DNA of 64,000 bases from Alphaproteobacteria bacterium (GCA_031549385.1 JAVBPW010000001.1:256001-320000); one strand, 5' to 3'; counted from the first letter of the stretch, positions 1,225 to 12,582 are shown. Numbers and translations are program-made. Notes: generated by a model not told the origin, from the letters alone.

Positions 1225-2027
1225 GCAACTTTCCTTATTTCGTTTTGGTTATTTCTTTGTAGTAATTCTGACGCTAAGGATATGTATGATTTTGATCCAG
1301 CACAATTTAAATCATATAATAAAACTGGCTTACCATGTGATGGAGCTTCTGTTATTCTTACGTTTCTTGGTATTACTGTTTCAAATACTAAATTCTTAAA
1401 ACATGAACGAACATCACTTTCAACTTGTCCTGAAATACTGTTGCGGTTATCAAACATTGTTAATACCACACCTTCAACTTCTAATGCTGGGTTATATTCG
1501 TGTTTTATTTGAGATATTGTTTTTACTAAGTTATGTATTCCTTCCAATGCAAAGAATTCACATTGTAATGGAATTAAAACTGAATCTGATGCAGATAGCG
1601 CGTTAATTGTTAAAAATGATAAAGCTGGTGGGCAATCAATAAACACATAGTCATATTTATCCTTTATACCTTCCAAAGCTGTTTTTAAACAAAAAGCCGG
1701 CGAAATATGATTTGCTAGCTCATTTTCAGCACGTGCAAGTGAAGTGTTTGATGTTATTATATCTAAATTTGGAATATTTGTTTTTGAAATTGCATAATGA
1801 ACCATGTTTGGATTTATTAACATGTCATACACTGTTACTGTACGAGCTTGAGCTGAAACACCTAATCCTGTAGAAGAATTTCCTTGTGAATCCATATCTA
1901 TAATCAAAACTTTCTTTTGTGTAGATACCAAGGCTGTGGCTAAATTTATTGTTGTTGTTGTTTTACCAACTCCACCTTTTTGATTTGCTACAGAAATTAT
2001 CTTTGCTTTTGTTGATAAAGTACTCAT
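1221..2027 (-). CDS. parA: Chromosome partitioning ATPase ParA/Soj
   Basis: Deviant Walker A NQKGGVGKTTT, IDCPP, PLQCEFFALEG, EAPSHG. Confidence 0.96.
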
Positions 2028-2155
2028 TTCTTCCCCTTAACTGATTTTACTCTCGGTCATCATTTTAATAAATAAAAAAGTAAGTGCAAGCACTTTCTTA
2101 GACTTTTTACTTGAACTTTTTCTTTTTTTAATATACATTATCTTCCTGTTAACGT

Positions 2156-2232
2156 GTGCCCTTAGCTCAGCAGGATAGAGCAACAGATTTCTAATCTGTG
2201 GGTCAGGGGTTCGAATCCCTTAGGGCACGCCA
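2156..2232 (+). tRNA. tRNA-Arg(TCT)
   Basis: GTGCCCT/AGGGCAC acceptor stem, anticodon arm ACAGA-TT-TCT-AA-TCTGT, GGTTCGAATCC, encoded CCA. Confidence 0.96.
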
Positions 2233-2253
2233 CCAACTTGAAGTTGGACACTT
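2233..2253 (+). repeat. Conserved tRNA 3'-trailer hairpin, copy 1 of 4
   Basis: C-CAACTTGAAGTTG-G-ACACTT directly after CCA. Confidence 0.85.
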
Positions 2254-2295
2254 TAGTTTTATATAATATAGAACGTAACTTGAATAAAAAATTAT

Positions 2296-2373
2296 GGCGG
2301 GTGTAGCTCAGTTGGTTAGAGCGCCAGTTTGTGGTACTGGATGTCGCCGGTTCGAACCCGGTCACTCGCCCCA
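2296..2373 (+). tRNA. tRNA-His(GTG) with encoded G-1
   Basis: G-GCGGGTG...CACTCGC-C-CCA, anticodon loop TT-GTG-GT. Confidence 0.95.
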
Positions 2374-2394
2374 TCAACTTGAAGTTGAACACTT
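2374..2394 (+). repeat. Conserved tRNA 3'-trailer hairpin, copy 2
   Basis: T-CAACTTGAAGTTG-A-ACACTT directly after CCA. Confidence 0.85.
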
Positions 2395-2448
2395 AATTTT
2401 GGATTTTATCAATTTTATTGATTTTGATTAAAAAAGAAAAGGGATTTT

Positions 2449-4116
2449 TTACTTCCCTTCTACTGATTTTAGCTTTTCTTTTAAATCTTCTTTTTCTATA
2501 TCACTTAAACCTTTATTGAAAAGTTCTGCTACTTCCCATTGATAACGAGCATCTCTGAACTTTCCTTGATCATAATATGCTTCGCCTAAATGAATTCTTA
2601 TTGGAGCGTGAGTTGCATTTCTTGAAACACATAATTCTAATAGTCTTATTGCTTCTTTTTGCTTTCCCATTTTGTATAGAGCCCATGCAAATGAATCTAT
2701 ATAATCAATATCTAATGGATTTGAAATTACTGCTTGTTCTATCATCTTTAAAGCATTATCTTGATTTTTATCATGATCTATCCAGAAATACCCTAAATAG
2801 TTTTGAACAACTGGATTGTTTGGTGAAAGAACTAATGCTGTTGCTAATAAATCTTCTACTTTATCAAACTTGCCTAATTTATCGTTGCATAATGCTAGAT
2901 AATAATAAATCTTCCAGTCTGTTGCTTTTTTATTATCTTTTATCTGTTTCTCGGCTGATGAGAATATTTCTAATGCTTTTTTGTAATTTGCTTGTTCAAT
3001 ATATTTTTCACCTAAATACATATAAGCAGTCATATAAAATGGATATTTAGAAATAATTCTTTTGAATATCTTTATTCCTTTTTCTTTATCCCCAGTTTTA
3101 TAAAGATTGTTTGCATACTTTAATTGTGTTGATGGATAAAGGTATGATGTTTTTGGTATTGATAAATATATTGCATTTGCTTTGTCTATTACATTTCTTG
3201 CTTCCCATACTTCTGCTAATAATACTTTTGAAAACTCATGATCCGGAGTTAAGTATAATGAAAGTTGAGTAAAGAACATTGACAGTTCCCAATTTGCAGG
3301 ATTAAATATTAATAATGCAAAATTAGAAAATGCTTCTGAAAAACCATCATTTACATTAGAAAATATGTTTGAATCCCCTGCTTTGTAATTTTGAATGTAG
3401 GAATTTAAAAGAGATGCCATACTTTCATCTATGATTTTTTCATTTACTACTTTTTGAGCTTCTTCAAATTTTGCTTGTTGGCAATAATATTGAACTAATA
3501 ATTGAGCTGCTCTTATACTTATGTTTTCTTTTTGAAATTTTGGTAAAAGTTCATTTATTGTTTTTTCATCTTTTAAATTAATCGCTAAATAAAGCTTGTT
3601 TTGATTTATTAAAGATGTTAATCCTTTTGAATTAATTTTACCAAGAGCATTATAAGCTGCTGTCTTATTATTTTGACCTGCATAAACCCATGCTGATAAT
3701 AAATGTTTTAAAATTTCTTGTTTTGATTCTTGTACTTTGTTTAAATCTTTTCTTGCTTGATCAAAGTTTCCTTCTTTTACTGACATTGCTACTTTTACAA
3801 AGTTTGCTGTGTTTTCTTTTTCAGGAGCTACTTCTGCTGCTCTTTTGAAATCACCCTCTATGATTGCTAAGATATATTCGCTTTTTTTTATTTCTGGAGA
3901 TGAATCTAGTTTTTCTAATTTATCAAAAAAGTTTGTTGCTGCATCAAAATCTGATGTCTTTTTTGCATATGTGCCTGCTAAATACAATGAATATTCATTT
4001 GGAGTTAGTGGTTTTGATGTTGTTAATGTTTCTCTTAAATCTAGTTTATCTTTTAAAATGATACATATTCCAAATATTAAAATTAGTATCCAGTATAGTT
4101 TATATCTTCTTGTCAT
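2449..4116 (-). CDS. TPR-repeat envelope protein
   Basis: N-terminal TM helix, multiple TPRs, NYLGY..W and YIDSFAWALYK motifs. ATG at 4116 has an AGGAG 8 nt upstream. Confidence 0.85.
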   Translation of the reverse strand: MTRRYKLYWILILIFGICIILKDKLDLRETLTTSKPLTPNEYSLYLAGTYAKKTSDFDAATNFFDKLEKLDSSPEIKKSEYILAIIEGDFKRAAEVAPEKENTANFVKVAMSVKEGNFDQARKDLNKVQESKQEILKHLLSAWVYAGQNNKTAAYNALGKINSKGLTSLINQNKLYLAINLKDEKTINELLPKFQKENISIRAAQLLVQYYCQQAKFEEAQKVVNEKIIDESMASLLNSYIQNYKAGDSNIFSNVNDGFSEAFSNFALLIFNPANWELSMFFTQLSLYLTPDHEFSKVLLAEVWEARNVIDKANAIYLSIPKTSYLYPSTQLKYANNLYKTGDKEKGIKIFKRIISKYPFYMTAYMYLGEKYIEQANYKKALEIFSSAEKQIKDNKKATDWKIYYYLALCNDKLGKFDKVEDLLATALVLSPNNPVVQNYLGYFWIDHDKNQDNALKMIEQAVISNPLDIDYIDSFAWALYKMGKQKEAIRLLELCVSRNATHAPIRIHLGEAYYDQGKFRDARYQWEVAELFNKGLSDIEKEDLKEKLKSVEGK

Positions 4117-4175
4117 TTTCAATTCTCCTTGCTAGTATAGCATAAACTAATGTTTTAAAAAAAAGAAGTGAAAAA

Positions 4176-4754
4176 ATGGACGAAAATAAAAAAAATTATC
4201 CTAAACTAGAATTATATTTGAACTTATTGAAAGAATGGAATGAGAAGTTTAATTTAGTTGCTCCTTCTACTATTGATAATGCATGGGAACGCCATTTTAT
4301 TGATAGTTTACAGTTAGAAGATTTATTACCTAATAAAGATGTTCTGATTTATGATTTAGGAGCTGGGGCTGGATTTCCTTCTTTAGTTTTATCTGCTCAA
4401 GGATACAAAAACGTATTTGCTGTAGAAAAACTAGCAAAGAAATGTGAATTTTTAAAAGAAGTTAAAAAACAACTCAATTTGCCTGTGAATATTTTAAATA
4501 CTAATATTTCTGCTTTAAAAATTAATAATAAGCCTATTTTTGTAGCAAGAGCGTTTGCTTCTTTGACTAAGATATTTGAAATAACTAAACCTTTTTTTAG
4601 ATTGAATCCCGAATATGTTTTGTTAAAAGGTGAAAACTGGGAAAGAGAAATTGAAGAAGTTAAACAGTATTTTAACTTTGATTTTAAAACTAAGCCCAGT
4701 ATTACTTCTGAAAAAAGTATGATTTTAATTATTAATAATGTGAGGAAGAAATAA
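4176..4754 (+). CDS. rsmG: 16S rRNA m7G527 methyltransferase RsmG (GidB)
   Basis: WNEKFNLV, RHFIDSLQL, DLGAGAGFPS, ARAFASL, LKG. Confidence 0.93.
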   Translation: MDENKKNYPKLELYLNLLKEWNEKFNLVAPSTIDNAWERHFIDSLQLEDLLPNKDVLIYDLGAGAGFPSLVLSAQGYKNVFAVEKLAKKCEFLKEVKKQLNLPVNILNTNISALKINNKPIFVARAFASLTKIFEITKPFFRLNPEYVLLKGENWEREIEEVKQYFNFDFKTKPSITSEKSMILIINNVRKK

Positions 4755-5392
4755 TGAAATATGTAGAAGAAATTTGTGAAATATTTAAAGACCTTATTCC
4801 AGAACCTGACAGTGAATTACAATATGACAATGAATGGACCTTTGCTGTTGCTGTTATTTTATCTGCTCAAGCAACCGATAAACGAGTTAATATTATAACT
4901 CAAGACTTGTTTAAAGTTGCTAAAACACCGGATGATTTTATTAAATTAGGTCTGGATGGGTTAATTCCTTATATTAAATCTATTAATTATTTTAATAATA
5001 AAGGAAAAAATATTATTGCAGCTGCTCATATGGTTAAAGATGAATTTGGTGGAAAACTTCCTCATACAAAAGAAGGATTATTAAAAATACCAGGTATTGG
5101 TAATAAAACTGCTGGAGTTATTATTAATCAATTATGGGATGGTGGATGTATTCCTGTTGATACACATGTTTTTAGAGTTGCTCATAGACTTGGCTGGGCT
5201 AGTGATAAAGATAATAATCCAGATAAGGTTTCTGAAACTTTAGATAAAATTATACCTCAAGAATATAAAAATGATATTTCTGATTGGATGGTTTTACATG
5301 GAAGATATACTTGCGTGGCTAAAAATCCTAAGTGTGATATTTGCCCTATTACTCAATATTGCGCTTATTATAAAAAATGTTTTAAGAGTTAA
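4754..5392 (+). CDS. nth: Endonuclease III
   Basis: VILSAQATD, HhH motif IPGIGNKTA, VDTHVFRV, C-x6-C-x2-C-x5-C 4Fe-4S motif. Confidence 0.95.
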   Translation: MKYVEEICEIFKDLIPEPDSELQYDNEWTFAVAVILSAQATDKRVNIITQDLFKVAKTPDDFIKLGLDGLIPYIKSINYFNNKGKNIIAAAHMVKDEFGGKLPHTKEGLLKIPGIGNKTAGVIINQLWDGGCIPVDTHVFRVAHRLGWASDKDNNPDKVSETLDKIIPQEYKNDISDWMVLHGRYTCVAKNPKCDICPITQYCAYYKKCFKS

Positions 5393-5446
5393 AAAACTTC
5401 TTGATTTTAAATTGTTCGTACATATAATAACTAATGCATCAAAAAT

Positions 5447-5520
5447 TGGGGAATCGTCTAATGGTAGGACATCGGTTTTTGGTACCGCGAATCAGGGTTC
5501 GAATCCTTGCTCCCCAACCA
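5447..5520 (+). tRNA. tRNA-Gln(TTG)
   Basis: TGGGGA.../TCCCCA-A-CCA, anticodon loop TT-TTG-GT, GGTTCGAATCC. Confidence 0.93.
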
Positions 5521-5540
5521 CCAACTTGAAGTAGACACTT
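5521..5540 (+). repeat. Conserved tRNA 3'-trailer hairpin, copy 3 (degenerate)
   Basis: C-CAACTTGAAGTAG-ACACTT directly after CCA. Confidence 0.8.
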
Positions 5541-5548
5541 TAAAAGAT

Positions 5549-5569
5549 AATCCCGTGTGGGATTTTTTT
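5549..5569 (+). terminator. Intrinsic terminator after tRNA-Gln
   Basis: AATCCC-GTGT-GGGATT followed by a T run. Confidence 0.6.
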
Positions 5570-5588
5570 ATTTCCTTAATTTTAAATA

Positions 5589-5604
5589 TGTTTCATGTGA
5601 AACA
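5589..5604. promoter_or_regulatory. parS centromere site 1
   Basis: TGTTTCATGTGAAACA, one mismatch from the consensus TGTTTCACGTGAAACA; about 4.4 kb from parB. Confidence 0.9.
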
Positions 5605-5687
5605 TTGAGATAAGTTGTTGTAATTGACTCGCATTTTGAATCGGGTCATTTTTATCTGTTTAAATATATCAAAAATGCATTTAAATA

Positions 5688-5703
5688 TGTTTCACGTGAA
5701 ACA
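5688..5703. promoter_or_regulatory. parS centromere site 2
   Basis: Perfect palindrome TGTTTCACGTGAAACA. Confidence 0.93.
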
Positions 5704-5748
5704 TTTGGATAACTTACTGTAAATGACTCGGATTTTTGAAAAAGTCGC

Positions 5749-6492
5749 TTAAAAGTCGTATTTTTTAGGTTTAAATGTAGTTTGAGCTTTTTCTTTACTC
5801 ATAACTTCATCTTTTTCATATAAGGATAAATCTTCTAATACTATTTTACCAAAATAAACTCTCATAACTGGTTTCTTTGGATTACTTAAATCTGATGCCC
5901 AAATTTGTGCTGCACCTTCTGTGTCGACTACATTAGGTTGACCATATTTTTCATAAACTCTTTGAAGGAATGCTCTTAGCTTTTCTTTTCTTTGGTATTC
6001 ATAAGCCTCACCAATACCTTCTACTTTATTGGCGTCGTTTTCATATTTGATTTGATATACTAAATTTTCTGTTTGATTTGAGGTAAAAAATAATTCTATT
6101 TTTTCACCAGTTTTATCATTTTGTAGCTTCATATAGTTTGTATAAACTTGCTTTTCTTTTGATGCCTGTTCTATTGTGCATCTTTTTAATTGCTCTGGAG
6201 TTTTAACTTTGCCCCCTCTTCTGCATTCATAATTATAGTTGTATTCAAAGAATTTTGGATAACGTGTGTCTTCTTTTACTACCTTGTAATCACTCTTACG
6301 AAGAGCTTCTTCTTTGATATATTCATAGGTTGAACCTAATACTATTTCATTGATATCAAAGACTTGAACCATTGCTATATTTGGTGAAATTTCCTTTGTT
6401 GTTGATGATTTAAATAAACCAAAAATTTGTGCTTCTGATTGTGAATGCATAAAAAAAGATACTGCAAATAATGGTAAAATCAACTTCCTCAT
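5749..6492 (-). CDS. Hypothetical exported protein
   Basis: Long ORF with signal peptide MRKLILPLFAVSFFMHSQSEA. ATG at 6492 lies 7 nt after TATAAT. Confidence 0.75.
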   Translation of the reverse strand: MRKLILPLFAVSFFMHSQSEAQIFGLFKSSTTKEISPNIAMVQVFDINEIVLGSTYEYIKEEALRKSDYKVVKEDTRYPKFFEYNYNYECRRGGKVKTPEQLKRCTIEQASKEKQVYTNYMKLQNDKTGEKIELFFTSNQTENLVYQIKYENDANKVEGIGEAYEYQRKEKLRAFLQRVYEKYGQPNVVDTEGAAQIWASDLSNPKKPVMRVYFGKIVLEDLSLYEKDEVMSKEKAQTTFKPKKYDF

Positions 6493-6535
6493 GTTTTTCA
6501 TTATAGAAAGCTTTTTATAAAAATAAAGGCTTTTT

Positions 6536-7099
6536 TTATTTTTTGATGTTTTTCAATAAAAAATGGTATGAAGCTGAAACTTGCTTGAACTTTTCTTCTT
6601 TTTCTTTATTTCCACCAGTTATATCTGGATGGTATCTTTTAGATAGTTCTTTGTATTTTTGATTAAGCTCTTTCTTGGTTGTTGGCCAAGAAATGCCTAA
6701 AATCTTTATTGCTGTTATATGTTCTCTTGGCAAATTGTTTAGTGTTGGGTCCCCTTTTGAGTTGCTTGTAAAGTCAAAATTTAGGTTATATTTTTCTAAG
6801 ATTTTAAACGGATCTTCCAAACCTTTTATTTTTTCAAGCACTTTTGGATTAATTCCTACACCCATTTTCCATGTCTTTCGTCGGCCTATTATATCAAAAT
6901 CATTTAACATTCCTATTTCTTTTTCATCCATATCTTTATAAAAATTCCAGTTTTTATTGTATTCTGAAGCATGTTTTTGACAGAAATAATGATAATCATG
7001 TGAATTCTTTTTAGGAGCTTTATGTAAACCCTCTTCTTTACAACCCTCTTGATCACAGGGTCTGAACTCTTTCTTTTCCTCTTTTTTTCTGTAATACAT
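6536..7099 (-). CDS. DnaJ-domain protein (alphaproteobacterial type with N-terminal Cys/His motif)
   Basis: C..EGC...G..KAPK...FC..H..EYNK.WN; C-terminal J domain with HPD. Confidence 0.88.
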   Translation of the reverse strand: MYYRKKEEKKEFRPCDQEGCKEEGLHKAPKKNSHDYHYFCQKHASEYNKNWNFYKDMDEKEIGMLNDFDIIGRRKTWKMGVGINPKVLEKIKGLEDPFKILEKYNLNFDFTSNSKGDPTLNNLPREHITAIKILGISWPTTKKELNQKYKELSKRYHPDITGGNKEKEEKFKQVSASYHFLLKNIKK

Positions 7100-7980
7100 T
7101 ACTTTTCCTTTTTTGATAATGGATGAAAATTTTGAACTGTTTTTACTAATCTTTCATCCATTATGTGAGTATAAATTTGAGTGGTTGATATATCTTCATG
7201 ACCTAATAACATTTGAACTGAACGTAAATCTGCACCACCTTCTATTAAATGAGATGCAAATGAATGGCGAAAAACGTGTGGAGAAACCTTTAATGGTGAA
7301 ATTCCTGCTGCTAATGCTTGCTTTTTTAACATCTTAAAAAATCCATCTCTGGAAATATAACCCTGTTCTGAGTCACTTGGAAATAGAAAGTTGGATATTT
7401 TACGGCCTTTAGGCAAGAAATTGTTGCGAATTTGTAAATATTTGATTAAGGATTCTTTTGCTTTACTATGAAGTGGTATTATTCTTTCTTTATTACCCTT
7501 CCCTGTTACTGATATTTGATCTTTTTCACCTATGAAGGCTGCCAATGGCAATGATACTAATTCTGAAACTCTTAAACCACAAGCATAAAGTAAATACATC
7601 ATAGCCATCAACCTTATACCATTATTATCATCTGGGGTTTTTAATATTAATTCTAGCTCATCCTGAGTTAAATATTTTGGAAGAGAATTTGTTCTTTTTG
7701 GATTTTCTATTTTTTCCATTGGTGATATTTTTATTTCTTTTTCTTCCATTAAGAATTTATAAAATGTTCTTAAAACTGATAGTTTTCTTGAAAGAGTTTT
7801 TTGACTTAATTCTTGTTCATACAAATATTGTATGTAGTTTTGAATATCTGATTTAGTCGCTTTAGTTATGTCATTTTTATAAAAAGAAATGAAATCCTGT
7901 AAATCCGTTTTATAGGAAAGGATTGTGTTTTTCGAATGCCCCTTTTGAGCAAATAACATTTCTAAGAATCTCTCTTGCAT
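7099..7980 (-). CDS. xerD: Tyrosine recombinase XerD
   Basis: LYACGLRVSELV, GKGNKERIIP, SPHVFRHSFASHL, LLGHEDISTTQIYTH. Confidence 0.9.
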   Translation of the reverse strand: MQERFLEMLFAQKGHSKNTILSYKTDLQDFISFYKNDITKATKSDIQNYIQYLYEQELSQKTLSRKLSVLRTFYKFLMEEKEIKISPMEKIENPKRTNSLPKYLTQDELELILKTPDDNNGIRLMAMMYLLYACGLRVSELVSLPLAAFIGEKDQISVTGKGNKERIIPLHSKAKESLIKYLQIRNNFLPKGRKISNFLFPSDSEQGYISRDGFFKMLKKQALAAGISPLKVSPHVFRHSFASHLIEGGADLRSVQMLLGHEDISTTQIYTHIMDERLVKTVQNFHPLSKKEK

Positions 7981-7986
7981 TCTTTA

Positions 7987-8015
7987 ATTATAGTTAATTA
8001 AAGGTGAAATTTCAA
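7987..8015 (-). promoter_or_regulatory. Sigma70 promoter of xerD (leaderless geometry)
   Basis: Minus strand reads TTGAAA-17 nt-TATAAT-6 nt-ATG. Confidence 0.6.
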
Positions 8016-8029
8016 TGAAACATTGATAA

Positions 8030-8165
8030 TTTTATTTTATAACATATTGTTTTTGGATTCTTATTTGACTCTTTAGTTTTAACTTAAATTTACTTAAAAT
8101 ACCGGCTTTTGATAAAGTTTTTATATTTTATAAGTGCTTGATCTTTGATTCTTATTTGACTCTTT
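8030..8165 (+). repeat. Two tandem copies of the dispersed CCGG/T-tract/TAA-N4-TTG/GANTC motif
   Basis: TATAACATATTGTTTTTGGATTCTTATTTGACTC and TATAAGTGCTTGATCTTTGATTCTTATTTGACTC. Further copies at about 11749, 13178, 13732, 16135 and 19115. Confidence 0.75.
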
Positions 8166-8245
8166 TGATATTTTTTATGATTCAATTTGAAGCTTCAAAT
8201 AATTTTAAGTGGTATATTCTTATTGCTTGGTTTATAATTTTTTAC

Positions 8246-9148
8246 ATGAATTTTGATAAATGGATTGTTATTGATAAGCCTTTAGGAATGACTAGTACAC
8301 AAGTACTTGGCAAAGTTAGAAAATTGTTAGGTGTAAAAAAAGTTGGCCATTTGGGTACACTTGATCCTTTAGCTACTGGAGTTTTACCTATTGCACTTGG
8401 AGAGGCTACTAAAACTATACCTTTTATTAATGACCATACAAAAGAATATGAATTTAATATAATATTTGGAATTGAGTCAGAAACACAGGATTTAGAAGGT
8501 ATAAACTTAGAAAATTTACACGATTTTGAATCTGTTAGCGAATCTGCAATAAGAGCTATTTTACCGGCTTTTAATGGAAAAATTACACAAACACCTCCTC
8601 AATATAGTGCTGTTAAGATTAATGGAGTACCTGCTTATAAGCTAGCAAGAGCAGGTGAGGTGGCTGAAATTAAGCCTAGGGAAGTTGAAATTTATAGCTT
8701 AAAATTTTTAGGAATGGTAAAACCTTATGAAGCTTCTTTTAAAGTTGTTTGTTCTACAGGAACTTATGTTAGGTCACTTGCTGTGGATATTTGTAAAAAA
8801 TTAGGAGTTAAAGGTGTTGTTTCTTTAATCCGCCGACTTCAATCTGGAGTGTTTAAAATTGAAGATTCTATTTTACTTGAAAATTTGGAAAAAATTTCTT
8901 ATAATTTGCCGGAATCGCAAAATGATGTCGTTAATGAAATATTTTTATCTTTAAATAAGGTTCTGGCCGACATCCCGGGTCTTGTTTTAAATCAAGATGA
9001 TATTTCATTGCTGCAACATGGGCAATTTGTGAAACACGAATTTGTTCAGGGTCAAGTTAGAATTGTCGATGACAAAAATAATTTGATTGCGATTGCAAAG
9101 AGTGAAGATGGATTTCTTAAACCTTTGCGAATTTTTAACAACAAATAA
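8246..9148 (+). CDS. truB: tRNA pseudouridine(55) synthase TruB
   Basis: DKPLGMTS, KVGHLGTLDPLATGVL, PPQYSAVK, CSTGTYVRSL. Start moved to the ATG at 8246. Confidence 0.95.
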   Translation: MNFDKWIVIDKPLGMTSTQVLGKVRKLLGVKKVGHLGTLDPLATGVLPIALGEATKTIPFINDHTKEYEFNIIFGIESETQDLEGINLENLHDFESVSESAIRAILPAFNGKITQTPPQYSAVKINGVPAYKLARAGEVAEIKPREVEIYSLKFLGMVKPYEASFKVVCSTGTYVRSLAVDICKKLGVKGVVSLIRRLQSGVFKIEDSILLENLEKISYNLPESQNDVVNEIFLSLNKVLADIPGLVLNQDDISLLQHGQFVKHEFVQGQVRIVDDKNNLIAIAKSEDGFLKPLRIFNNK

Positions 9149-9162
9149 AAAGGAGCATCGCG

Positions 9163-9432
9163 ATGTCGATTACTAAAGAAAAAAAAGCTGTTATCATTAA
9201 AGATAATGCTATTAGTGAAAAAGATACTGGATCTGCATTTGTGCAGGTTGCTGTTTTAACTGAACGTATTAATTCTTTAACTGAACATATGAAAGCTAAT
9301 AAAAAAGATTTCAATTGTCGTTTAGGATTAGAAAAGTTAGTTGGAAGACGTAAAAGATTATTAGCTTATTTGAAAGAAAATAATGCTAAGGCTTATGAAG
9401 AATTAATTAAAAAATTAGGACTTCGTAAATAA
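9163..9432 (+). CDS. rpsO: 30S ribosomal protein S15
   Basis: DTGS..VQVA.LT.RI, RKRLLAYL, LGLRK; truB-rpsO-pnp synteny. Confidence 0.97.
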   Translation: MSITKEKKAVIIKDNAISEKDTGSAFVQVAVLTERINSLTEHMKANKKDFNCRLGLEKLVGRRKRLLAYLKENNAKAYEELIKKLGLRK

Positions 9433-9440
9433 ATTGGAGG

Positions 9441-9461
9441 AGGGGTGTTTGCACCCCTTTT
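9441..9461 (+). terminator. Intrinsic terminator after rpsO
   Basis: AGGGGTG-TTTG-CACCCCT followed by Ts. Confidence 0.75.
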
Positions 9462-9462
9462 C

Positions 9463-9586
9463 TTGTAATATGGTAAAACATATTATATAATTGTGAATAA
9501 GATAAGGACAATATGTATAAAATAGTTTTTTTATACACAGTTTAAAAAGTTGTGCATAAGTAAGCTATTTATATTTTCCTTGTCTT
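9463..9586 (+). promoter_or_regulatory. pnp promoter and long 5'-leader hairpin
   Basis: TTGTAA(9463)-17 nt-TATAAT(9486), then an imperfect ~88-nt stem-loop at 9499-9586. Confidence 0.65.
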
Positions 9587-9620
9587 GAAGTTAACTTAAA
9601 CATTAAAAAGGAAAATAAAA

Positions 9621-11714
9621 ATGTTTGGAAAAAAATCAATGTTCAACGAAACTAAAGTTGAATTTAAATGGAATAACGCAAAAGTTGTTCTGGAAACTGG
9701 AAAATTAGCTAGACAGGCTACTGGCGCTGTTTGGGCTACTATGGGAGAAACTAAAGTTCTTGCGACCGTGGTTGCTGCTAAAAAAGCAACTGAAGGACAA
9801 GACTTCTTCCCACTTACTGTGGATTATGCAGAAAAATATTCTTCTGTTGGAAGATTACCTGGCGGATTTAAAAAGAGAGAAGGGCGACCAAGCGACGACG
9901 AAATTCTTGTTTCTCGTTTGATTGATAGACCTATTAGACCTTTGTTCCCAGAAACATTCTTCAATGAAGTACAATTGCTTACAACTGTTTATGCTTATGA
10001 TGGTGTTAATAGCCCCGATATTTTGGCTTTAATTGCTGCATCTGCTTGTTTGAGTATCTCTGGTGTTCCATTTATGGGACCTATTGGTGCTGTTAGAGTT
10101 GGATATATTAATAATGAATATGTTTTCAATCCTACACCAGAAGCAAGAAAAGAATCTGCTCTTGAATTAGTTGTTGCTGGAACTTCTAATGGAGTTTTGA
10201 TGGTAGAATCTGAAGCAAAACAATTAAATGAAGATATCATGTTAGGTGCTGTTAAAGCTGGATTTGAAAACTTCCAAGTTGTTATTAAAAATATTAATGA
10301 CTTTGCTAAAAAAGCTAAAAAAGAAGCTTGGGAAGTTCCTGCAAGAACTCCTGCTTTTGCTGAAGTTATGAAACTTTTAGAAAAGAAAGCATTACCTGAT
10401 CTTACTAAAGCTTATAAAATTAAAGACAAGTTAGAAAGACAAGATGCTGTTGCTGCTGCTAAAGAAGCTGCTAAAGAAGCTATTGCTGAAAATGAAGAAT
10501 TATTACCTGCATTTGAAACTGCTTTCTTTGAAACAGAATATAAACTTGTTCGTGGAATGGCTTTAAATGATAAAAAGAGAATCGACGGAAGAAAGTTAGA
10601 TGAAGTTAGACCTATTGAATGTGAAGTTGATATTTTACCAACTAATCACGGTTCATCTTTATTTACACGTGGAGAAACTCAATCTCTTGCTACTTTGACT
10701 TTAGCTACAGTAGATGAAGGTCAAATGATTGATGATATTTATGGTATTAGAGATGAAAATTTCTTATTACATTATAACTTCCCAGCTTTCTCTGTTGGAG
10801 AAATTTCAAGAAGAGCATCACTTGGTAGACGTGAACTTGGACATGGAAAATTAGGTTGGAGAGCTCTTCACCCTGTATTGCCATCTCTTGAAGAATTCGG
10901 TTATACTATCAAAATTACTTCTGATATTTTAGAATCTAATGGTTCATCTTCTATGGCTACTGTTTGTGCTGGATGTATGGCTTTAATGGCTGGTGGAGTG
11001 CAAATTAAAGCTCCTGTTGCTGGTATTGCTATGGGTCTTATTAAAGAAGGTAATGACTATGTAGTTCTTTCTGATATCATGGGTGACGAAGATCATCTTG
11101 GAGATATGGACTTTAAAGTGGCTGGATCTAAAGAAGGTATCACATCTTTACAAATGGATATTAAAATTACTTCTATTACTTTTGAAATTATGGAAAAAGC
11201 TTTGAAACAAGCTCGAGATGGACGTATTCATATCTTGGGTGAAATGGCTAAAGCTATTAAGGCACCTAGAAAAGATCTTTCTAAGAATGCTCCTCAAATA
11301 GAAGATATTGAAATTCCTGCTGCTAAAGTTAGAGAAGTTATCGGAAGCGGTGGATCGGTTATTAAGAAAATCCAAGAAGATTTCCAAGTAACTGTTAATA
11401 TCGACGATAAGAATGTTGCACATGTTGCATCTGCTAACCTTGAAAATTTAGAAAAAGCTGTTGCTTTTATTAAAGGTATTTTTGCTGAACCTGAAGTTGG
11501 GCAAATTTATACAGGTGAAGTTGTAAATATCCAAAAGTTCGGTGCATTCGTTAGATTTTTTGGCCAACAAGATGGACTTGTTCATATCTCTGAATTTGGT
11601 ACAAAAGAAAAACGTGTTGATAATATCGAAACAGTTGTAAAACTTGGAGATAAATTAAAGGTTAAATACCTTGGAAAAGAAAAAGGTAAAACTAAATTAC
11701 AATTAGTAAAATAG
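9621..11714 (+). CDS. pnp: Polyribonucleotide nucleotidyltransferase
   Basis: FFPLTVDY, RLIDRPIRPLF, FTRGETQ, ESNGSSSMA, DHLGDMDFKVAG; KH and S1 domains. Confidence 0.98.
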   Translation: MFGKKSMFNETKVEFKWNNAKVVLETGKLARQATGAVWATMGETKVLATVVAAKKATEGQDFFPLTVDYAEKYSSVGRLPGGFKKREGRPSDDEILVSRLIDRPIRPLFPETFFNEVQLLTTVYAYDGVNSPDILALIAASACLSISGVPFMGPIGAVRVGYINNEYVFNPTPEARKESALELVVAGTSNGVLMVESEAKQLNEDIMLGAVKAGFENFQVVIKNINDFAKKAKKEAWEVPARTPAFAEVMKLLEKKALPDLTKAYKIKDKLERQDAVAAAKEAAKEAIAENEELLPAFETAFFETEYKLVRGMALNDKKRIDGRKLDEVRPIECEVDILPTNHGSSLFTRGETQSLATLTLATVDEGQMIDDIYGIRDENFLLHYNFPAFSVGEISRRASLGRRELGHGKLGWRALHPVLPSLEEFGYTIKITSDILESNGSSSMATVCAGCMALMAGGVQIKAPVAGIAMGLIKEGNDYVVLSDIMGDEDHLGDMDFKVAGSKEGITSLQMDIKITSITFEIMEKALKQARDGRIHILGEMAKAIKAPRKDLSKNAPQIEDIEIPAAKVREVIGSGGSVIKKIQEDFQVTVNIDDKNVAHVASANLENLEKAVAFIKGIFAEPEVGQIYTGEVVNIQKFGAFVRFFGQQDGLVHISEFGTKEKRVDNIETVVKLGDKLKVKYLGKEKGKTKLQLVK

Positions 11715-11731
11715 AAAACCAATTTTTAAAT

Positions 11732-11758
11732 AAAAGGCCGGCATTTAGCCGGCTTTTT
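11732..11758. terminator. Bidirectional intrinsic terminator after pnp
   Basis: AAAAGGCCGGC-ATTTA-GCCGGCTTTTT. Confidence 0.8.
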
Positions 11759-11783
11759 GTTTATTAAACACTTGTTTTTGGAT

Positions 11784-12026
11784 TCAATTTTGCTCATAGA
11801 ACAGAACATGTTCCTCTGATTGAGGAGCTGTTAGTTCAACTCTTTGACAAAAGACATCTTCGCCAGATTTGAGAGGAACCCCTTCTTGTGGAAACATGTA
11901 AACAATGTCTCCAGAAATAACTGTTTTTAGCGTTATCCGTGCTTCGGATACGTCTATAATTCTGCACCTTACAGGAGTCTTTATTTCTCCTTTTGATACA
12001 GCTCTTAGAAACTGTTTTCTGGTCAT
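11784..12026 (-). CDS. Small hypothetical protein (ORFan)
   Basis: 80-aa ORF filling an intergenic gap, with a TTGACA promoter upstream. Confidence 0.55.
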   Translation of the reverse strand: MTRKQFLRAVSKGEIKTPVRCRIIDVSEARITLKTVISGDIVYMFPQEGVPLKSGEDVFCQRVELTAPQSEEHVLFYEQN

Positions 12027-12145
12027 TTCTTTTATATGTTTTTAGGTTTAAAATTTAAAAGTTCTTTTGGTTTTAATATATATTGAATCTAATGTCAAAA
12101 GAATTATTGATTTTATTAACATTTATTTATATATTCTTCTTACGC

Positions 12146-12220
12146 GTCCCTATCGTCTAGCGGTTAGGACAGAGGGTTCTCAATCCTCCAACACGGGTTC
12201 GAATCCCGTTAGGGATGCCA
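12146..12220 (+). tRNA. tRNA-Glu(CTC)
   Basis: GTCCCTA/TAGGGAT, GAGGG-TT-CTC-AA-TCCTC, GGTTCGAATCC, CCA. Confidence 0.94.
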
Positions 12221-12241
12221 GCAACTTGAAGTTGCACACTT
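12221..12241 (+). repeat. Conserved tRNA 3'-trailer hairpin, copy 4
   Basis: G-CAACTTGAAGTTG-C-ACACTT directly after CCA. Confidence 0.85.
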
Positions 12242-12330
12242 TATTAGGGGTTATAGCTTGTGTTAATGTTATAAAAAAAGAGTCTGATTTTTCAATCAAA
12301 CTCTTTTTATAAAATAACTGGAAATTTGTT

Positions 12331-12582
12331 TTAACCATCTATGACAAATTCAATGAAGAACCAAATGCTGCCGAGGAATATAAGTCCGCCAAAAATAACA
12401 AGAATAACAGTTATAATAAGTGGAACTTCTGGAATAAAGAAACCTGCGCATACTATCAATATACCTATAGCAAAAATACAAAGGGTTATTAAGGTGTGTA
12501 ATATCGTAAATAAACACCCTCCGCCCTTTTCATCACCTCCATAATGTACAGGAGGTATTACAGTTGGAACAATGATTACCAT
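12331..12582 (-). CDS. Small two-TM membrane protein (ORFan)
   Basis: 83 aa with two hydrophobic helices; TTGACA upstream. Confidence 0.6.
   Translation of the reverse strand: MVIIVPTVIPPVHYGGDEKGGGCLFTILHTLITLCIFAIGILIVCAGFFIPEVPLIITVILVIFGGLIFLGSIWFFIEFVIDG

Follow-up and report, generated by a model that had tools for sequence, protein, structure and literature searches.

A lineage-specific hairpin repeat abutting the exact 3′ ends of tRNAs, tmRNA and protein-coding genes in a reduced alphaproteobacterium

A hairpin element of ~21-23 bases is present in 17 copies in the genome of a reduced alphaproteobacterium, and 15 of them start precisely where a gene product ends, in sense orientation. 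The element was recognised in a 64,000-nucleotide stretch of DNA (GCA_031549385.1, JAVBPW010000001.1:256001-320000; hereafter, the window), in which an initial annotation had reported a hairpin with an ACACTT trailer immediately after the CCA of four unrelated tRNAs. The window is part of the 455-kb contig C7 of a single metagenome-assembled draft of 931,143 bases (8 contigs, ~30% G+C, 97% complete). The host's RpoD is ~53% identical to RpoD of diverse Alphaproteobacteria, and its closest relative, the sole other genome of the same family, belongs to a different genus and shares 49-62% protein identity across the genes compared. We tentatively favour the reading that the element is a copied module acting at RNA 3′ ends, and below we set out the evidence on the family, its structure and its origin before weighing this reading against its rivals.

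ARAGORN identified eight tRNA genes in the window, and four of them, each also detected by the Rfam tRNA model, carry the element. tRNA-Arg(TCT) (2156..2232, plus strand), whose CCA ends at 2232, is followed by copy 1 (2233..2255, plus strand) within the Arg-His spacer; this copy has a C:G closing pair, a CAAC/GTTG stem, a TTGAA loop and the tail ACACTTTA, with a predicted fold of -5.8 kcal/mol. Copy 2 (2374..2396, plus strand), with a T:A closing pair and the tail ACACTTAA, follows tRNA-His(GTG) (2297..2373, plus strand), and its hairpin is retained when the tRNA and its trailer are folded jointly. Behind tRNA-Gln(TTG) (5447..5520, plus strand) lies the degenerate copy 3 (5521..5542, plus strand), which has one change in the 3′ arm and no closing partner. 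Finally, tRNA-Glu(CTC) (12146..12220, plus strand) is followed by copy 4 (12221..12243, plus strand), which has a G:C closing pair and shares 22 identical bases with the copy behind rpoD on contig C5. The 13-base core is found without mismatch at 2234, 2375 and 12222 and with a single one at 5522; behind all four tRNAs, including that with the degenerate copy, it starts one base past the CCA. The closing pairs C:G, T:A and G:C, followed by the ACACTT tail, are as had been described, and the window's four other tRNAs are without the motif. Allowing up to two mismatches on both strands, 14 core matches were found compared to 2.5 expected, a number reached in none of 100 shuffles.

Copies elsewhere in the genome were searched for with a core scan, a looser pattern, a covariance model built from 11 copies (R1) and a loop-plus-tail pattern requiring a four-pair stem, with covariance models used to seek weaker copies; a filter-free search of the copy-bearing loci then aligned 17 copies (alignment A3). 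A covariance model built from all 17 (R2) returned precisely these copies, and no extra match, from the genome at E <= 1. Five copies follow intact tRNAs, namely the four in the window and one after tRNA-Arg(CCT) (C7:160959, plus strand). Two further copies lie at the ends of other stable-RNA sequences: one after the third and last tRNA-Phe 3′ end of a tandem array (C7:22038, plus strand), and one at the 3′ end of the two-piece alphaproteobacterial transfer-messenger RNA (tmRNA; Rfam RF01849, 166.8 bits; C7:155927, plus strand). Eight copies are found at the stop codons of protein genes: rpoD (C5:5265), dnaJ (C7:9273, plus strand), topA (C7:55495, plus strand), rpsU (C7:157417, plus strand), an RlpA-like gene (C7:192700, plus strand), carD (C1:197, minus strand), a 97-codon open reading frame (ORF) without a Pfam match (C5:84061) and a fucosyltransferase-like gene, fucT (C5:91762). 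Of the remaining two, one lies antisense inside a RumA/TrmA-like methyltransferase ORF (C4:13411), and the other, which is degenerate, follows a 110-base, strongly folding non-coding stretch (C7:42639, plus strand; z = -4.5) and is also sense, provided that the upstream stretch is RNA. An 8-kb stretch carrying the tmRNA, rpsU and tRNA-Arg(CCT) copies is spanned by contigs of the sole DNA run that contains it, probably the source and labelled as an invertebrate gut metagenome, with no letter differences reported and one 1-base insertion.

The 15 boundary copies comprise five tRNAs, where the element begins at CCA+1, the tRNA-Phe 3′-end array, the tmRNA and eight protein genes. The initial view of a signal belonging to tRNAs is therefore too narrow, as the same element follows the tmRNA, stands at eight protein-gene stop codons and occurs once antisense within an ORF. 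Placement at protein genes is precise to the nucleotide: in seven of the eight ORFs the last base of the stop codon is itself the first paired base of the hairpin, and in the eighth the hairpin comes directly after TAA. Six of the eight ORFs end in TAG, compared to 126 of 750 long ORFs genome-wide (17%; P = 5e-4). A TAG stop yields a G:C closing pair, as would be expected from selection for such a pair at the gene end.

Two of these loci have unusual surroundings. At C7:21691-22060, two units of 134-137 bases stand in tandem behind tRNA-Phe, and each closes with the last 16-17 bases of that tRNA; these units resemble leftover attachment-site duplications or an amplified small element, and the second contains a hairpin with the element's stem and a different loop. 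The non-coding stretch at C7:42528-42638 comes after a 222-codon ORF, and its fold has three hairpins and a CU-rich loop of 30 bases (z = -4.5). This small-RNA candidate has no Rfam match, and the degenerate copy lies directly behind it.

The layout of the element in alignment A3 consists of a closing pair (N:N′), a four-pair stem, a five-base loop and a tail of the form A-C/T-A/G-C-T-T-(T)-A. Stems have 4-6 pairs, and the palindrome spans 15 bases. The loop is TTGAA or CTGAC, with the central TGA invariant, and the stem occurs as CAAC/GTTG, GAAC/GTTC, CCAC/GTGG, GGAC/GTCC or AAAC/GTTT, changing on both sides. Among distinct sequences, the closing pair is G:C in 5, C:G in 3, A:T in 1 and T:A in 1; the second pair is C:G in 10, A:T in 2 and G:C in 2; and the third is A:T in 12, C:G in 1 and G:C in 1. 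In the 17-copy alignment, whose fitting to a covariance model is a bias toward pairing, 93.1% of cells are paired, both partners vary in three of the five pairs, and covariation scores 0.411, compared to 0.107 ± 0.036 in shuffles (0/500 reach it) and <=0.137 in slid controls. A MAFFT alignment of the first 11 copies gave 90.7% pairing, with none of 500 shuffles reaching its score. Predicted folding energies are -4.1 to -6.5 kcal/mol, and the tail stays single-stranded; the copy at the fucosyltransferase-like gene, which is AT-rich, folds poorly (-1.0). The proposal of a structural signal, made from the closing pair of the window copies, is thus borne out and extended, since covariation across the 17 copies reaches beyond the closing pair into the stem, and it seems safe to conclude that the hairpin is under constraint. 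In 15 of the 17 copies, loop position 6 and tail position 18 also go together, T being combined with A and C with G. We considered a loop-tail pseudoknot or alternative pairing and rejected it, as the linked positions do not extend into a helix; descent of subfamilies better explains the link.

The family appears to be confined to this lineage. The exact pattern occurs eight times in the forward and never in the reverse orientation in the host genome, and in none of 40 relatives of the same order; reversed-pattern controls gave no match. In 60 related genomes, R2 gave 16 weak matches in 13 genomes, the best seven of which are not at tRNA ends. Across 185,579 species genomes there were three matches, all in unrelated organisms, with ~4 expected by chance, and the 33 matches in metagenome contigs were all coding-like or without gene-end context. 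In the closest relative, CCA is followed by a short AT-rich spacer and then by a canonical terminator at all 18 tRNAs examined, which lack the element, as do 30 other CCA-bearing tRNAs of the host genome itself. These absences, together with that from the 60 related genomes, speak against a conserved processing determinant.

Comparison of orthologous sites gives the same picture. In 11 relatives, T-rich or AT-rich sequence follows the terminal hairpin of the tmRNA, clearly so in the closest relative; in the host tmRNA, the element comes after the first two or three T's, as if splitting the U tract. Nine of nine dnaJ and topA orthologues from relatives have TAA as their stop codon, and those of rpoD have TAA (three) or TAG (three). 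Downstream of rpoD, dnaJ and topA the relatives have a spacer and then a terminator, whereas in the host TAG runs straight into the element. At the tRNA-Phe array, the native sequence that follows the first two 3′ ends resumes 1-2 bases past the element at the third. Because orthologous sites in relatives are without it, the element looks inserted, and it seems safe to regard it as a lineage-specific repeat that arrived after the split from the sampled relatives.

The copies also bear marks of recent duplication. Those at rpoD and tRNA-Glu, and likewise those at dnaJ and topA, are identical over 20-24 bases despite lying at unrelated loci, and recent copying is therefore indicated. When 620-base flanks were compared all-against-all, similarity was limited to 20-34 bases, save where flanks overlap. 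A finer comparison revealed two pairs of loci in which homology starts exactly at the 5′ edge of the element and runs downstream: rpsU and the RlpA-like gene have ~60 bases in common, terminator included, and carD and the fucosyltransferase-like gene share at least 146 bases, extending into a convergent paralogous gene, with differing stem variants. Between the antisense methyltransferase copy and those at dnaJ and topA, 19 of 20 positions agree; the antisense copy closes with a C:G pair of its own, and the sequence before it resembles a tRNA 3′ end. A clean 21-base in-frame insertion into the methyltransferase was rejected, as the protein is merely two residues longer there than its relatives. 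Separately, an AT-rich repeat with two TTTAACA-like words lies 3′ of the tmRNA, rpsU and RlpA-like copies (C7:155950-156020, 157470-157540 and 192750-192820) and may be a common regulatory region.

The reading that we favour, while holding it short of an even chance, is that the element is a lineage-specific, copied module for RNA 3′-end processing or stabilisation. As we infer it, the element would be transcribed from its place after the exact end of the product and before the real terminator, and its short hairpin would form at the end of the functional RNA. RNase E would cut the single-stranded tail at AC[A/G]C|UU[U/A]A, removing the terminator with the rest of the trailer and leaving the upstream RNA with the small hairpin and a 4-base overhang. 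An end capped in this way would be a poor substrate for PNPase, such that the 3′ ends of mRNAs may be fixed at the stop codon and stabilised; in tRNAs and the tmRNA, the tail cut would serve as the entry cut of 3′ maturation.

Several features of the element and its host are consistent with such a module. The tail fits the RNase E core RN|WUU as a matter of sequence: all 17 copies in alignment A3 have R at -2 and U at +2, and 11 have the full core. PMC5222698 gives RN|WUU with U at +2 as the RNase E core motif, describes sites as enriched around stop codons, and reports cleavage near tRNA 3′ ends with release of the 3′ trailer. Genes for RNase E/G and PNPase are present, PNPase being the sole 3′ exonuclease family detected; RNase Z, RNB-type exonucleases and Hfq were not found in the genome by profile searches, all family counts here coming from such searches of the 97%-complete draft. 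Type A RNase P RNA is present. Canonical terminators were found by scan 3′ of the Gln and rpsU copies and by eye 3′ of the Arg-CCT, topA, RlpA-like, carD and fucosyltransferase copies. That of tRNA-Gln occupies 5549..5570 on the plus strand (stem 5549-5564 plus a T run), and the Gln copy therefore lies upstream of a real terminator. Four non-T bases (ACAC or ACGC) separate the stem from the first T, and the copy behind tRNA-Arg(TCT) stands 41 bases ahead of the co-oriented tRNA-His. With real terminators 3′ of several copies, the element is, as originally stated, not an ordinary terminator. Taken together, a 3′-end module would, as a still provisional account, make sense of the tail, the enzymes present, the sense orientation and the place ahead of terminators.

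A number of observations weigh against a 3′-end module. The identical copies at unrelated loci point to recent copying by a DNA-level process, one copy lies antisense within a coding region, and a lax terminator scan calls the Glu and tmRNA copies terminator-like on their own strand. Two low-share RNA runs from the same study yielded, for the 8-kb stretch, short, low-depth contigs of which none reaches the element; one is a 167-base contig within the tmRNA that ends 27 bases short of the tmRNA end. That the hairpin starts at the very last base of the product is left unexplained by a tail cut, which would also leave a 19-base hairpin on essential single-copy tRNAs such as tRNA-His, for which the proposal names no removing enzyme. 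Nor can the function be essential, because 30 of the host's own tRNAs, the closest relative's 18 tRNAs and the relatives' tmRNA, rpoD, dnaJ and topA all do without the element. Finally, a function in RNA does not predict the strand and region bias of the copies. The 12 on C7 all have plus-strand orientation (two-sided binomial P = 5e-4) and are confined to 9-268 kb of 455 kb (P = 0.002), both tests being post hoc. In equally post hoc comparisons, the element is carried by seven of nine plus-strand stable-RNA genes in that region compared to none of four on the minus strand (Fisher 0.02), and by none of 23 stable-RNA genes outside it (Fisher 2e-4); C7 below 270 kb and C5, which make up 39% of the genome, hold 15 of 17 copies (P = 4e-5).

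The regions rich in the element differ from the rest of the genome in base composition, with a replication-type GC skew of ~0.02 compared to ~0.12 in the rest of C7, C2 and C4. In finer terms, skew is near zero in C7 below 240 kb, in C5 and in C1, and ~0.12 in C7 beyond 260 kb, in C2 and in C4; the switch falls near the window start, and all but two copies lie in the low-skew part. The dnaA gene is on C5. Since skew is near zero in the element region, the copies are not assignable to the leading or the lagging strand.

Searches for enzymes that could mobilise the element returned few candidates. The Y1 (RAYT) transposase family PF01797 had no match in the host genome, with a control that matched in 6 of 14 genomes, and TnpB (PF07282), reverse transcriptase, DDE_3 and IS110-type transposases had none in the host genome either. 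The Y2 transposase likewise had no match in the host genome, but its control matched no genome, which makes this result uninformative. Matches to mobile-element enzymes were limited to four tyrosine recombinases and one weak DDE_Tnp_1 match. One of the recombinases is encoded in the window (7099-7980, minus strand; 293 residues; Phage_integrase 143 bits), is of XerC/D size and lies 1.6 kb from tRNA-Gln. The DDE_Tnp_1 match (16.6 bits, below cut-off) is in a 529-codon ORF on C8, a single-copy contig of 2,825 bases that is without the element and shows no match to the rest of the genome, of which it may not be a part.

Among the rivals, the strongest is a selfish or neutral miniature palindrome, REP-like and spreading as DNA, possibly through a single-strand hairpin in replication; hairpin and tail would then be kept for the copying machinery rather than for a role in RNA. 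We consider this origin possible but doubtful, though nearly as likely as a 3′-end module because all 12 C7 copies share strand and region. It would also fit the lineage-specific distribution, with chance-level matches in 60 relatives, species genomes and metagenome contigs, the empty orthologous sites and the split U run of the tmRNA, the identical copies at unrelated loci, the antisense ORF copy beside its tRNA-3′-end-like sequence and the two homology pairs that start at the element's 5′ edge. However, no candidate enzyme is at hand beyond the four tyrosine recombinases and the one weak DDE match, CCA ends, stop codons and the tmRNA end have no DNA target sequence in common, and random insertion with neutral survival would scatter copies in 3′ flanks rather than place 15 of 17 at the boundary. 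The variation of the closing pair (C:G, T:A, G:C) among otherwise identical copies is also unexpected from simple copying. The various readings are not mutually exclusive, as a copied element may have survived only at sites where it helps or does no damage. One model alone, in which the element serves as punctuation, requires the nucleotide-exact abutment of 15 of the 17 copies. In organelles, tRNA-like structures act as punctuation marks. We regard as unlikely a bacterial punctuation system in which a copied mini-hairpin on tRNA, tmRNA, small RNA and housekeeping mRNA ends directs an endonuclease cut; less likely still is its specific form, a cut at the 5′ foot of the hairpin, by RNase P or another enzyme, that makes CCA ends, the tmRNA 3′ end and mRNA ends at stop codons. 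Stable RNAs are over-represented among the copies (seven tRNA or tmRNA ends and one structured non-coding stretch), the type A RNase P RNA is present, and the stem is followed by A in 16 of 17 copies and then by C in 14, recalling a discriminator and the first C of CCA. A minihelix substrate of RNase P has a coaxial acceptor/T-like helix of ~12 pairs and a 3′ RCCA tail, and by these features the element is a poor substrate, its stem having 4-6 pairs and its non-CCA tail reading A-C-R-C. Moreover, seven of the eight ORFs would lose the last base of their stop codon, yielding non-stop mRNAs for rpoD, dnaJ and topA, and relatives mature the same RNAs without the element.

The remaining explanations are less probable again. 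Weak intrinsic termination, or hairpin-dependent pausing before the main terminator is reached, is kept as a minor rival because the lax scan flags the Glu and tmRNA copies. More T-rich sequence follows the tail in several copies, and the element interrupts the tmRNA's original U run, so that this terminator needs replacement. Intrinsic terminators have a G+C-rich stem with a U run no more than 0-2 bases behind it. Like an intrinsic terminator, the element is a hairpin followed by T-rich sequence at gene ends; unlike one, it has a weak stem and four non-U bases before the first U, occurs inside a tRNA operon (41 bases before tRNA-His) and has strong canonical terminators downstream of several copies, and we consider termination or pausing improbable. 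Just below it in probability we place a binding site or seed, with trailers released as small RNAs or sponges or bound by a dedicated protein; that the antisense copy in the methyltransferase mRNA is the target, as this account would have it, is equally improbable. Several trailers do consist of a 5′ hairpin, a conserved unpaired tail, an AT-rich spacer and a terminator, over a 20-base stretch, the coding strand of the methyltransferase gene and the dnaJ and topA copies are complementary at all but one position, and tRNA 3′ trailers acting as sponges are known (PMC5222698). A perfect 20-base complement is, however, beyond point mutation, which argues for DNA copying rather than co-evolution; Hfq was not found in the genome by profile search, the copies behind tRNA-Arg(TCT) and rpoD are without their own terminator, and no partner was identified. 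Chance resemblance or an assembly artefact, which the 8-contig metagenome-assembled draft and the two copies at contig ends (C1:176-197 and C5:91762-91784) could suggest, is hardly credible: shuffles never reach the observed count, reversed-pattern controls gave none, and contigs of the DNA run agree across the 8-kb stretch with its three copies, bar the one 1-base insertion.

Other signal and element classes were considered as well. The element had not been recognised as a described motif, and in agreement with this no Rfam family covers it, either in the window (1900-12500) or at the 15 loci with other copies, where the scans listed only tRNA, tmRNA and sub-threshold unrelated matches. In antitermination modules, a boxB hairpin precedes boxA, the site bound by NusB/S10; the tail resembles boxA at six of eight positions, and a boxA-like counterpart was not found in the rRNA leader or spacer of contig C6. 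The attC sites of integrons are 57-141 bases long, with paired core sites and an integron integrase; such a site was rejected for a 15-base palindrome whose host genes are scattered housekeeping genes. A miniature element derived from IS200/IS605 was rejected on the grounds of no Y1 or TnpB match, similarity limited to 20-34 bases and no second end, and a REP/REPIN system with its RAYT on the grounds of no PF01797 match, 17 singlets without doublets and a single orientation of all C7 copies. Read-through of the stop codons by a tRNA with a CTA anticodon was likewise set aside, as extensions past TAG are not conserved as protein and the element also follows tRNAs.

Some further features of the genome and of the window are recorded here. 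Two adjacent tRNA-like genes without an encoded CCA lie at C2:66626-66796 on the minus strand (Rfam 54.7 and 44.5 bits); one has the amber-reading anticodon CTA and the other an odd anticodon loop, and they could be phage-derived. In the window, an ORF for PNPase of 697 codons (open frame 704 aa) occupies 9621-11714, just upstream of tRNA-Glu(CTC). Upstream of this ORF, a match resembling the S15 leader at 9088-9219 falls below the gathering score (30.2 bits, E = 8e-4), and the two together resemble the rpsO-pnp arrangement. A promoter-like match (10/12) lies at 2238-2267, ahead of tRNA-His: its -35-like hexamer, TTGAAG, falls within the loop and 3′ arm of the Arg-TCT copy, and a perfect -10 hexamer follows 18 bases further on. 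A promoter reading of the element was rejected, since this match is found at the Arg-TCT copy only and the other copies are without it.

Small dispersed hairpin repeats are common in bacteria, but in our search of the literature and of Rfam we found no description of a repeat placed with single-nucleotide precision on tRNA, tmRNA and stop-codon ends and having a compensatory stem. If the element acts in RNA, it would show that a genome with few 3′-processing enzymes can make and spread a new processing or stability signal through the duplication of a 20-base module. A purely selfish element would be among the smallest known mobile units, and its targeting of gene ends and its strand bias would point to a new insertion mechanism. 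Should it after all be a punctuation system, CCA ends and mRNAs ending at or inside the stop codon would arise with no exonuclease trimming, giving a free-living-style analogue of mitochondrial tRNA punctuation in a host without detected RNase Z or RNase II/R.

Known systems of a similar kind include the REP and REPIN sequences of proteobacteria (PMC3116915). They too are short, dispersed, imperfect palindromes 3′ of genes, copied within a genome and species-specific. Both they and, presumably, the element are placed in transcribed 3′ untranslated regions. The element differs in having 17 copies rather than hundreds, singlets rather than inverted doublets and no detected RAYT-type Y1, and in its far shorter stem, its exact abutment on CCA and stop codons and its strong association with tRNAs and the tmRNA. 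REPs stabilise upstream mRNA against 3′ exonucleases and, when very near a stop codon, disturb the termination of translation. The very small dispersed repeats of cyanobacteria and the palindromic elements of Rickettsia are likewise tiny, lineage-specific hairpin repeats that look inserted, have no known transposase and sometimes sit inside genes or RNA genes; to our knowledge, neither has been reported at nucleotide precision on CCA ends and stop codons. The Rickettsia elements are also about five times longer than the element and lie mostly in frame within ORFs. In their RN|WUU core and their placement at stop codons and tRNA 3′ ends, RNase E sites resemble the element's tail, although the sites of PMC5222698 are degenerate and mutually unrelated, whereas the element is a near-identical, repeated module with a hairpin, and its cut is predicted. 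The element is set apart from the t-elements of mitochondria by having no cloverleaf and no CCA, by complete stop codons and ordinary terminators and by its presence at only 17 genes. In mitochondrial tRNA punctuation and t-elements, a small structured RNA at the exact end of a gene marks the point of cleavage, and the likeness lies in just such a structured element at the exact end, in a host that is also a reduced alphaproteobacterium.

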